Made by a program: the position numbers. A DNA stretch of 64,000 nt from a virus. Taxonomy: Duplodnaviria; Heunggongvirae; Uroviricota; Caudoviricetes. Positions 18,801 through 21,800 of the stretch are shown here, piece after piece. The stretch lies in IMG/VR virus record IMGVR_UViG_637000265_000001. One strand, written 5' to 3'. Numbering within the stretch: position 1 is the first letter of the stretch; each line of letters begins with the position of its first letter.

Positions 18801-21800
18801 TGCCGGACTTAGCATTGCTACGCATGGCCTGATAAATGGCGTTACCCGTGGTGTTCGTGGTGCATCAAATATAATTAGTGGCAATAAAACATCTGCACAG
18901 AGAGCGACCACTGCGCCAACAGAAACATCACCATTCTCCGGTGATGCCGCTGCAGCAACAAATCCTGCGGTTCATGCCGCAGAGGCAAGAGTAGCACAAG
19001 GTGTACCAATGACGCCTGCGACGAAGAACCCAGAGGAAGTCGTTCGCACAGTAGCAGCACAAAAAAGGCCAAATCTCGCTTCATCGCTTGATGAACTAGA
19101 TATCAATCCTCAGGCTGAAGTTCTGGAGTCTGCTGAAAGGCTTAATGTTGATTCATTACTCCCTTCACACTTTTCCGGGAACGAGCAATACAAGGCAGTT
19201 GAGCAAGCAATCAAGTCCCGTGCGGGTTCTGCTCTACAGGTGCAGGAAAATGAAGCAATCAGGCAGCTAGCACAGGGCGCGGGTGAGATAATTGATCGCG
19301 TTTCCGGTGCAAAAGATGCTCTTGGTATGAGCGACAAGTTTATTGATACGGTCAATGGAAGAATGTCTGCGCTGATGAAACGAAGCGACCAGCTTTATCG
19401 CAATGTTGAAAAGGCGATGCCTGCAGGTGCAAAAATTGATGCGCCATCAACAAGGTCAATGCTCAAACAGGTGGAAGAAGATCTTGGCGGGATGAAAAAC
19501 CTTGACCCTATTGAAAAGAGAGTTGAGGTAGCCTGAGTTTAACGGACACTCCTTCCTGAAATAGAATGGCATCAGAAGGAGCTAATAATGAGCAGAAAAA
19601 CCCAACGTGAACCGCCCCGGGAATCCTGGAGACTAAACTTCCTGAGAAAGAGGTAAACAGGATGACTAAAAATACTCGTTTTTCCCCCGAAGTCCGTCAA
19701 CGGGCAGTCCGTATGGTTCTGGAAAGTCAGGGCGAATATGACTCACAATGGGCGACAATTTGTTCCATTGCCCCAAAGATTGGCTGTACGCCGGAGACTC
19801 TGCGTGTCCGGGTTCGCCAGCATGAGCGGGATACCGGGGGCGGTGATGGAGGGCTCACCACCGCTGAACGTCAGCGTCTGAAAGAGCCGGAACGTGAAAA
19901 TCGTGAACTGCGCCGCAGTAACGATATCCTTCGCCAGGCTTCCGCTTATTTTGCGAAGGCGGAGTTCGACCGCCTCTGGAAAAAATGATGCCACTGCTGG
20001 ATAAGCTGCGTGAGCAGTACGGGGTCGGACCGCTATGCAGCGAACTGCATATTGCCCCGTCAACGTATTACCACTGTCAGCAACAGCGACATCATCCGGA
20101 TAAACGCAGTGCCCGTGCGCAGCGCGATGACTGGCTGAAGAAAGAGATACAGCGCGTATACGATGAAAATCACAAGGTATACGGTGTGCGTAAAGTCTGG
20201 CGTCAGTTGTTACGGGAAGGTATCAGAGTGGCCAGATGCACTGTGGCACGTCTCATGGCGGTTATGGGACTTGCCGGTGTTCTCCGGGGTAAAAAGGTCC
20301 GTACGACCATCAGCCGGAAAGCCGTTGCCGCAGGCGACCGCGTAAACCGTCAGTTCGTGGCAGAACGACCTGACCAGCTGTGGGTGGCTGATTTTACTTA
20401 CGTCAGCACATGGCAGGGCTTCGTCTATGTGGCGTTCATCATTGATGTGTTTGCCGGATACATCGTGGGGTGGCGGGTCTCATCGTCCATGGAAACGACA
20501 TTCGTGCTGGATGCACTGGAGCAGGCGTTATGGGCCCGTCGACCGTCCGGCACGGTCCATCACAGTGATAAAGGTTCTCAGTATGTATCGCTGGCCTACA
20601 CACAGCGGCTTAAGGAAGCCGGATTACTGGCATCAACAGGAAGTACAGGCGACTCGTATGACAACGCGATGGCGGAGAGCATCAATGGTCTTTACAAAGC
20701 GAAGGTAATACACCGTAAGAGCTGGAAAAACCGTGCAGAAGTGGAACTGGCCACACTCACGTGGGTGGACTGGTATAACAATCGACGATTGCTGGAAAGG
20801 CTGGGCCATACTCCTCCGGCAGAAGCAGAAAAAGCTTATTATGCTTCCATCGGAAACGATGATCTGGCAGCCTGAGTTCACAGATAAAACACTCTCCAGG
20901 AAACCCGGGGCGGTTCAACGTTACATGGCGTAGCCGACAATTTCGCACGTATAAACATCTTTGATGCCAGCGAGGTACAACCATCCCTCCTGTGTGGCAA
21001 CATACGTCAGGTCCGCCACCCAGACCTGATTTGGTGCTGTAGGAGCGAACGTCTGGTTCAGCAGATTTGGCGCAACTGGCAGATTGTGGTTCGGGTTCGT
21101 AGTCGCTCTGAACTTGCGTTTCTGCTTACAGCGTAGCCTCAGCTCCTTACGAAGACATGCCAGTCGGTCACGACCAACGATGATGCCATTCTCTGCCAGC
21201 TCCGTCTGGAGCCGCCGGGTTCCATATGTTTCGCGAGTGCGGATATGTGCCACCTTAATCTCCAGTTTTAGCCGCTCATCACTTTGTTTTCTGTCTGAGG
21301 GTTCATGCTGTACCCAGTTGTAATAACCGCTCCTGGATACACCAAATACCTGACACATCGCTTCAATGGGAAATTGTTGTCGCCATTGTTCGATTAACGC
21401 GTATTTTTCAGCGACTCCTGTGCAAAATACGCTGTTGCTTTTTTTAATATATCGCGCTCAAGGCGAGCTTCATTTAACGCCTTACGCAGTTGCAGAATTT
21501 CAGATTCCAGTTCAGCCACCGTGCGGGAACCAGGAGTACCGAGCCCTTTTCTGGCGGCGGTAACCCATTGTCCTAAAGTGCCTTCAGGAAGGGATAATCG
21601 GGAAGCGCCTTCACTGATCGAAAGTTGATTTTCAAGAACCGTTCTGACAGCTTCGGCTTTGAACTCTTTAGAGTAACGTTGGGTTTTTCTGCTCATTATT
21701 AGCTCCTTCTGATGCCATTCTATTTCAGGAAGGAGTGTCCGTTAAACTCAGGCTACCTCATATCGCTACATCCTCGAGGAGGCCAAAGCGGCGAACAAAA

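Follow-up and report, generated by a model that had tools for sequence, protein, structure and literature searches.

The prophage cluster at thrW (SHI-O) of Shigella flexneri 5b strain 8401 contains genes of a P22-like phage and genes of an SfV-like phage that meet at a short pile of insertion sequences. The question raised by this locus is how two modules of different origin came to be joined there, and in which order the events took place. The window analysed here is a stretch of 64,000 nucleotides (IMG/VR virus record IMGVR_UViG_637000265_000001) that corresponds to CP000266.1, approximately 236.7-300.7 kb, in the thrW/SHI-O prophage cluster; the surroundings of its gp16 gene are 100% identical at CP000266.1:244481-266211.

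Several elements of this picture have already been described: IS600, IS629, nested insertion sequences, tandem Sf prophages at thrW and, for strain 8401 itself, IS rearrangement of SHI-O. That Sf phages integrate in tandem at the thrW att sites is documented in the parts of PMC3306764 considered here, which also draw IS600 ORF1/2, IS629 ORF1/2 and a putative int together with host genes in the proA-yaiC region. The genome paper of strain 8401 (Nie et al. 2006, PMC1550401) reports, in its corresponding parts, several IS-associated inversions, one of them around SHI-O, with IS629 and IS1 credited, and about 15 kb of SfV remnant in SHI-O. The anatomy of the junction at base level is absent from these passages of both papers.

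Anatomy of the junction

A preliminary description had read positions 19524-21760 as a nested IS scar. When the full IS600 of the window (62378-63641, 1,264 bp) was compared with the whole window by BLAST, three matches were obtained, namely the element itself, 21760-20924 and 19524-19608, and a repeat search of the window agreed on these IS600 pieces. Matches of 85 and 837 bases for IS600, and of 1,310 bases for IS629, are far beyond chance. The resulting unit has 2,237 bp, is bounded by two IS600 left ends and lies in the following context:

17806-19523, plus strand: gene for a P22-type gp16 (ejection/DNA-transfer protein), 5' part only, which breaks off in codon 573 of about 911 (after 572.7 codons)
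19524-19607, plus strand: IS600 copy 'a', nt 1-84, which carries the left terminal repeat and 7 codons from the start of orfA; 19524-19608 (nt 1-85) agrees with the full copy at 85/85 positions
19608-20917, plus strand: complete IS629, 1,310 bp, terminal inverted repeats established by direct reading
20918-20924, plus strand: ACG, the right target duplication, then TTA(C), nt 85-87(88) of copy 'a'
20924-21760, minus strand: IS600 copy 'b', nt 837-1, inverted; 835/837 identity to the full copy
21761-22180, plus strand: SfV-like large-terminase gene, 3' part only, which starts at codon 439 of 577 and includes the nuclease domain (Pfam TerL_nuclease)
62378-63641, plus strand: complete IS600, 1,264 bp, with TG...CA ends, used as alignment reference; inverted with respect to copy 'b'

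The ACG found at 19605-19607 and again at 20918-20920 is IS600 nt 82-84, and the TTA at 20921-20923 is IS600 nt 85-87 (read against IS600 nt 82-92, ACGTTACTCTA). Two bases can be assigned in two ways: the T at 19608 is common to IS600 nt 85 and IS629 nt 1, and the C at 20924 can be read as IS600 nt 88 or, equally, as the complement of nt 837, which makes it the 1-nt overlap of the join. IS600 nt 169 and 816 are the only positions at which the fragments deviate from the full copy. The coordinates of the preliminary description were therefore right within one-base ambiguities. Both BLAST and direct reading bear out its nesting of IS629 at IS600 nt 84 with a 3-bp ACG duplication, and its 4 further bp of IS600, followed by an inverted body from about nt 836 to nt 1, become 3-4 bp and nt 837-1 once the shared nucleotide is taken into account. 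Since ACG is present on both sides of IS629 and IS600 continues for 3-4 nt beyond it, IS629 is a simple insertion.

The IS629 element has the ends TGAACCGCCCCGGG...CCCGGGGCGGTTCA, with TGAACCGCCCCGGG at either end in inverted orientation, and its 1,310 bp equal the reference length of IS629. Its coding content is as follows:

19662-19988, plus strand: orfA, open frame of 108 aa, Pfam HTH_Tnp_1
19985/19988-20875, plus strand: orfB, open frame of 295/296 aa, Pfam rve
19943-20059: frameshift pseudoknot ALIL (RF01497), Rfam score 120 bits against a gathering score of 50

The element thus contains orfA, orfB and the programmed frameshift signal of the family. A protein identical to the 295-aa OrfB is encoded at other Shigella loci, for example in CP000039.1, in virulence-plasmid and other unrelated contexts, and the nucleotide sequence is 98.9% identical to an E. 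coli copy. The ACG on both sides agrees with the 3-4 bp target duplications that IS629 makes (PMC3271280). Judged from these features, the IS629 is apparently intact and could still move.

The two IS600 pieces are in a different state. Both belong to IS600 by nucleotide identity, and E. coli copies that align to the reference IS600 carry the PGAP label 'IS3-like element IS600 family transposase'. Each piece is incomplete and retains the left end only, copy 'a' consisting of nt 1-88 and copy 'b' of nt 1-837. The orfA of copy 'b' (21394-21696) is intact and encodes a protein identical to that of the full copy; its orfB (20921-21358) is cut after residue 145 of 272, with a stop codon provided by the TTA of copy 'a'. 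An orfA accompanied by a full-length orfB (DDE transposase) is found in neither piece. With one end each, and with OrfB truncated within its catalytic core, the two IS600 pieces are no longer active elements.

The flanking prophage modules

On the left side, the match to P22-like phages (APC_JM3.2, IME10, Dewey) covers positions 6871-19523 at 95-97%; it begins within the large terminase and ends within the last ejection-protein gene. The gp16 part shares 99% identity with Escherichia phage APC_JM3.2 as far as the base that precedes IS600, and the intact gp16-type gene of that phage continues with CTTTCGGG straight after the IS600 insertion point. The 3' part of the gp16-type gene (AGTCTTTCGGGCAG...) is absent at the scar. 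The truncated gp16 frame enters IS600 by 13 nt and stops at a TGA at 19534-19536, giving a product of 576 aa (17806-19536) with the Pfam domains SLT and Phage_P22_gp16.

On the right side, the terminase part aligns at 91.6% to SfV nt 1873-2231. Downstream of 21761 the window is collinear with SfV/SfI/SfII through the portal, head and Mu-like tail genes and gtrV-gtrB-gtrA, up to the att region at about 40789. This alignment gives the SfV remnant of strain 8401 a length of about 19 kb (21761-40789), against the approximately 15 kb given for the same genome in the consulted part of PMC1550401. The preliminary description had placed the fusion of a P22-like and an SfV-like module at this junction, and the alignments agree: the P22-like match ends at 19523 and the SfV match begins at SfV nt 1873. 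On the evidence of these matches the scar is the point at which the two modules are fused.

The P22-like late block (6865-19523) was first assumed to belong to one prophage with the int-to-lysis block (40786-62377), since both match the same P22-like phages with a gap of 1.2-2 kb. This reading was not established; in one IMG/VR contig the late block is linked with an SfV-type integrase.

The surrounding IS patchwork

The scar lies in a window full of IS-bounded segments without target duplications. One more of these boundaries is:

5615-6864: IS911, which cuts the P22-like terminase, without duplication

The complete IS600 at 62378-63641 lies between the lysis/KilA-N region and an integrase fragment of 359 nt, which continues into thrW and proA immediately past the window. 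As this IS600 has no target duplication (flanks AAA and GGG), it is a probable partner in regional rearrangements; in other strains, an IS600 in the SfV-type integrase gene is flanked by a 3-bp duplication, AAG. Together with the att core, the integrase fragment repeats 419 nt of the complete integrase (40786-41946), inverted and with five mismatches, which indicates a second, related copy of the integrase. At 40524-40786, gtrA, att and int follow one another without interruption, the order that two tandem prophages at thrW would give. The block 21761-62377, composed of the SfV-like and int-to-lysis parts, is inverted with respect to the thrW-proximal integrase fragment.

Distribution of the junction and order of events

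The junction between nt 88 of copy 'a' and nt 837 of copy 'b' (88|837) is identical in CP000266.1 and is present in the independent complete genome CP026799.1, which is 99.9% identical in this region, with point changes and a 4-bp indel inside IS629. It was further found in IMG/VR contig 2547132127_000009 and in one JGI contig, and the match in IMG/VR to the whole scar unit is to the same locus only. The junction is absent from 5,426 complete E. coli genomes, in which no place covers at least 80% of the scar query; IS629 lies near IS600 in many of them. Apparent matches to 65% of the query in E. coli proved to be separate IS copies chained in the search, not the scar.

The left junction, in which gp16 is interrupted by IS600 nt 1-84 followed by IS629, is more widespread. 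Four additional IMG genomes have it, as does S. flexneri SFBU1023, and the neighbouring phage genes of these carriers differ by 1-3% from those of 8401. Moreover, in two other IMG/VR contigs (L010 and L011) IS629 is inserted at the same IS600 position and in the same orientation, and IS600 nt 85-1264 follows it without interruption; ACG is seen on the right side of IS629, the left flank being outside the contigs, and beyond IS600 there are an SfV-type integrase fragment, att and gtrA. The presence of IS629 in an otherwise intact IS600 elsewhere, together with the shared left junction, indicates that the IS629 insertion is old. The 88|837 join, seen only in 8401-like sequences, is in turn the youngest event.

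On the right side of this IS629, SFBU1023 has psiF-phoA instead of IS600 and no duplication, a pattern typical of recombination between this element and another IS629 copy. This fits the IS629-mediated inversion around SHI-O that distinguishes 8401 from strain 301 in the relevant passage of PMC1550401.

Precursors were also searched for. The IS600 right end followed by AGTC..., which is the partner junction of the gp16 insertion, is absent from IMG/VR. The IS600 right end preceded by TAT, as expected for a full IS600 in the SfV-like terminase, gave three matches in IMG/VR, all at unrelated insertion sites; copy 'b' as a once-complete simple insertion is thus a reconstruction.

The nature of the join

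Three properties define the 88|837 join as illegitimate recombination: the two IS600 copies are in opposite orientation, their breakpoints are not equivalent (88 versus 837) and a single nucleotide is shared. Homologous recombination between IS copies is ruled out, as there is no equivalent crossover and no full-length hybrid IS, and transposase strand transfer is ruled out because it would involve an IS terminus. For a similar reason the insertion of one IS600 into another was rejected: the join uses the internal position 837 and no IS end. An inverted duplication by template switching (snap-back) was also rejected, the outer flanks being complementary at only 4 of 7 nt.

The arrangement of two left ends facing outwards could suggest a mobile composite (IRL-IRL) at 19524-21760. 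The outer flanks, one for each IS600 piece, are AGT (19521-19523) and TAT (21761-21763), and they come from two different phage genomes. The composite was rejected because there is no flanking duplication and, in the 5,426 E. coli genomes and IMG/VR, no copy at other loci, and the 2,237-bp unit therefore did not move as a unit.

Proposed history and alternatives

These observations are probably best read as a scar of three successive events in the thrW (SHI-O) cluster of 8401, non-functional in itself: insertion of IS600, insertion of IS629 and the illegitimate 88|837 join. In the first step, IS600 'a' would have entered the gp16-type gene of an old P22-like prophage remnant. In the second, IS629 inserted between nt 84 and 85 of copy 'a', duplicating ACG and splitting orfA at codon 7. 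Both steps are ancestral, because they are common to other S. flexneri lineages. The third step would have taken place in the 8401 lineage, in which the large-terminase gene of a recently acquired SfV-like gtrV prophage would have contained another IS600, copy 'b', oriented oppositely to 'a': a break at nt 88 of 'a' would then have been joined to a break at nt 837 of 'b' with a 1-nt overlap, at the cost of 1,176 bp from the right of 'a', 427 bp from the right of 'b' and the DNA between them. The later joining to an inverted IS600 copy that the preliminary description had proposed is thus supported, and can be refined as illegitimate and younger than the IS629 insertion.

Most likely the SfV-like block was first inverted through IS600, and the join then arose as a deletion. 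Two histories may lead to the present order: (i) a homologous inversion between IS600 copies (20924/62378), then the illegitimate deletion (88|837), and finally a homologous IS600-IS600 deletion near thrW; (ii) one illegitimate inversion with its ends at nt 88 and nt 837, after which a homologous deletion would have taken the reciprocal join too. The deletion route is favoured because each of its steps is a common event.

The second history belongs to the alternative that we consider possible, although clearly less probable: an illegitimate inversion between two IS600 copies that were then directly oriented, of which 88|837 would be one end. The reciprocal join would be elsewhere in the chromosome, or would have been lost by a homologous deletion between the IS600 at 62378 and an IS600 in the thrW-proximal integrase. 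In agreement with such an event, the SfV-like and int-to-lysis blocks are inverted relative to the integrase fragment beside thrW, one inversion and one homologous deletion would produce the order from 19524 to the end of the window in two steps, and IS-associated inversions, one around SHI-O, are reported for 8401 in the part of PMC1550401 cited above. On the other hand, in an illegitimate inversion two non-homologous joins have to be made at once, so that it is a rarer event than a deletion, and the reciprocal junction was not found. Under an inversion this junction is predicted to read ...GTCATGCGCTCTCC-C-TCTAAAGAGTTC... (the complement of IS600 nt 838 upward, then nt 89 onward) or ...TTTTGTCATGCGCTCTCC-C-TCTAAAGAGTTCAAAGCC..., and the pattern GCTCTTTTGTCATGCG-N(0-30)-AGAGTTCAAAGCCGAAGC had no match in IMG/VR, which holds predicted proviruses only, or in JGI metagenome contigs. 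These collections are blind to the 8401 chromosome: the known junction (IS629 end followed by ACGTTAC) is also absent from the metagenome collection, so that the null result for the reciprocal join says nothing about that chromosome.

The deletion reading leaves one detail unaccounted for, which is the closeness of the break in copy 'a' to IS629. The break lies 3-4 nt past the IS629 duplication, and at random this would be expected with a chance of about 4 in 1,180 positions (approximately 0.3%), a figure calculated post hoc. As a variant of the third step, IS629 itself may have provoked the break, although we regard this as unlikely. Elements of the IS3 family, such as those of the IS911 type, nick about 3 nt outside their end, and a copy-out nick of this kind could lead to a double-strand break and to end joining into the other IS600 copy. 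The position of the break would be explained in this way, although IS629 had long been resident, and IS3-family elements with the IS-excision enhancer IEE are reported to delete IS-flanking regions in E. coli (PMC9397093). Against it, the case is single and judged post hoc, and classical IS-adjacent deletions begin exactly at the end of the element, not 6-7 nt away. Still more speculative is the generalisation that IS3-family nicks, or replication starting just outside the element's own end, give rise to a class of breaks joined almost without homology, here into another IS. If it were true, such IS-adjacent 'near-miss' junctions would form a class missing from current models of IS rearrangement.

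It is very improbable that the 88|837 join came first and that IS629 inserted afterwards at a distance of 4 nt, the IS629 copies at nt 84 elsewhere being independent insertions into a hot spot. IS elements may have preferred target sites, and the pre-insertion sequence can be reconstructed either way. This order would nevertheless need IS629 to have inserted repeatedly with identical position, orientation and duplication, beside the same gp16 flank, in at least six other genomes that are 1-3% divergent from 8401, and it is further opposed by the two contigs with IS629 at this place followed by unbroken IS600 nt 85-1264. Finally, an assembly artefact by collapse or mis-joining of IS copies, which would have undone the preliminary description and would be conceivable because the junction is inside multi-copy repeats at which short-read contigs break (one ends at window position 19604), is scarcely credible: CP000266.1 and CP026799.1, two independent assemblies, agree on every base of the join, which makes misassembly very unlikely, the join is also present in 2547132127_000009 and the JGI contig, and nt 88 beside an inverted nt 837 is a unique sequence that repeat collapse does not create.

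Comparison with known systems

The nearest known counterpart of the three-event scar is the IS600/IS629/integrase-remnant cluster of S. flexneri SHI-O, which in the consulted part of PMC3306764 has the same locus and the same elements. Compared with a cluster of the L010/L011 type, IS600 in 8401 is broken 4 nt past the IS629 duplication and is joined to an inverted IS600 in the SfV-like terminase, and the integrase remnant and att site that follow it there are gone. The base-level junction, the P22-like partner and the 88|837 join are not described in the passages of PMC1550401 that concern us here, which deal with the same genome.

Nests of the same two elements exist on EHEC plasmids (for example p93_0495-1, NZ_CP074801.1), where IS600 is split by an inverted IS600 and IS629 stands against a truncated inverted IS600; judging from these nests, pile-ups of IS600 and IS629 are common. 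In the EHEC nests the IS629 end abuts the truncated IS600 directly, as an IS-adjacent truncation at another IS600 position, whereas in 8401 there are 6-7 nt of another IS600 between them. Deletions associated with IEE (PMC9397093) likewise concern IS629 and IS600 and remove flanking DNA with little or no homology, but IEE has been described on elements of Shiga-toxin E. coli, and the 8401 scar keeps IS629 and has its break away from the IS629 end.

Consequences for the prophages of S. flexneri 5b

The scar has no function of its own, and it left both prophages defective. By the alignments, the P22-like remnant stops within gp16 and has none of the genes that would follow it. From the SfV-like prophage the small terminase is missing, as are the first 438 codons, about two thirds, of the large terminase. 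With this loss of terminase, it is unable to package DNA, so that the serotype-V gene gtrV cannot leave by phage and is fixed in the chromosome.

The scar is an ordinary product of IS-driven genome decay, a well-established process in Shigella, and its importance is small: it is a matter of bookkeeping, one further case of IS-driven decay of Shigella prophages. The order IS600, IS629 and illegitimate join could serve to mark 8401-like lineages, and the junction provides a base-level record of how the gtrV serotype-V conversion genes of S. flexneri 5b became fixed in the chromosome.

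IS600 flanks in gp16 and in the integrase gene

The eight nucleotides immediately to the left of IS600 in gp16, the P22-type ejection-protein gene, are AAGAGAGT (window 19516-19523), and in other strains the end of the IS600 that lies in the SfV-type integrase gene is followed on its right by AAGAGAGTAAATC. In the IMG/VR contig L010 (IMGVR_UViG_2687453163_000002) the integrase-side 8 nt are found at about 12127-12134 and are identical to window 19516-19523. Both flanks are natural gene sequence, of gp16 and of the SfV-type integrase respectively, and the IS600 carried by the integrase gene of other strains is a simple insertion with an AAG duplication. 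The chance of an 8-nt match between the gp16 and integrase flanks in this exact register is about 1.5e-5; no mechanism was found that accounts for the identity.

Organization of the prophage cluster

Mobile elements and second lysis cassette in the window
1-5614, minus strand: second lambdoid lysis cassette, left of IS911 (Rz, lysozyme, DUF6971 protein)
5615-6864: IS911, 1,250 bp, interrupting the P22-like large-terminase gene
47644-48411: IS1, 768 bp, simple insertion with a 9-bp duplication, GAAAGGGCG
51681-53106: IS4-like element, 1,426 bp, simple insertion with a 13-bp duplication, CACCTATGGTGTA
from 62378: complete IS600, with a KilA-N/lysis region on one side and, on the other, the last 359 nt of an integrase gene

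The prophage cluster meets the chromosome in the region 62378-64000 together with about 90 nt past it: tRNA-Thr (thrW), proA and proB lie just past the window end, and the IS600 at 62378 has no target duplication (flanks AAA and GGG). At 40524-41946, gtrA is followed directly by an att region and then by a complete integrase gene, an arrangement like that of an attP or of a tandem-prophage junction; 419 nt of this segment, comprising the 3' end of the integrase gene and the att core, recur in inverted orientation beside thrW (63642-64000) with 5 mismatches. The complete integrase shares 97% identity with phages mEp213/mEp043 and only about 69% with SfV int.

Both IS1 and the IS4-like element inserted into the lambdoid block, in its early region. 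The lysis cassette at 1-5614 derives from yet another prophage; within it, 127 nt (988-1114) match the complement of the Rz region (60754-60880) at 93%.

Other carriers of the same elements

In S. flexneri SFBU1023 (CP182556.1, 758-8000) the truncated gp16, IS600 nt 1-84 and IS629 are followed by psiF-phoA-iraP-ddlA instead of IS600. Since psiF-phoA replaces IS600 and its junction with IS629 has no duplication, the structure indicates that two IS629 copies recombined. The same stretch has only about 92% identity to E. coli and many broken frames, and looks like an error-rich assembly.

The E. coli plasmid p93_0495-1 (NZ_CP074801.1, 1510-5520) is an independent case of IS600/IS629 nesting, in which an inverted IS600 interrupts another IS600 at about nt 227 and the IS629 end directly adjoins a truncated inverted IS600.

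Over the 21.7 kb compared, the 102.7-kb contig More10kbN_1001754 (JGI 3300001148) is 100% identical to strain 8401, all IS copies included; labelled 'metagenome', it looks more like reference or isolate DNA than an environmental assembly.

IS911 and the late-gene block

The IS911 at 5615-6864 has no target duplication (flanks CGC and GCC). In other S. flexneri contigs the same late-gene block is adjoined by IS911 at the equivalents of window 11146 and 11434, in the orientation opposite to that of the window copy. These arrangements suggest that IS911-adjacent deletions occurred repeatedly.
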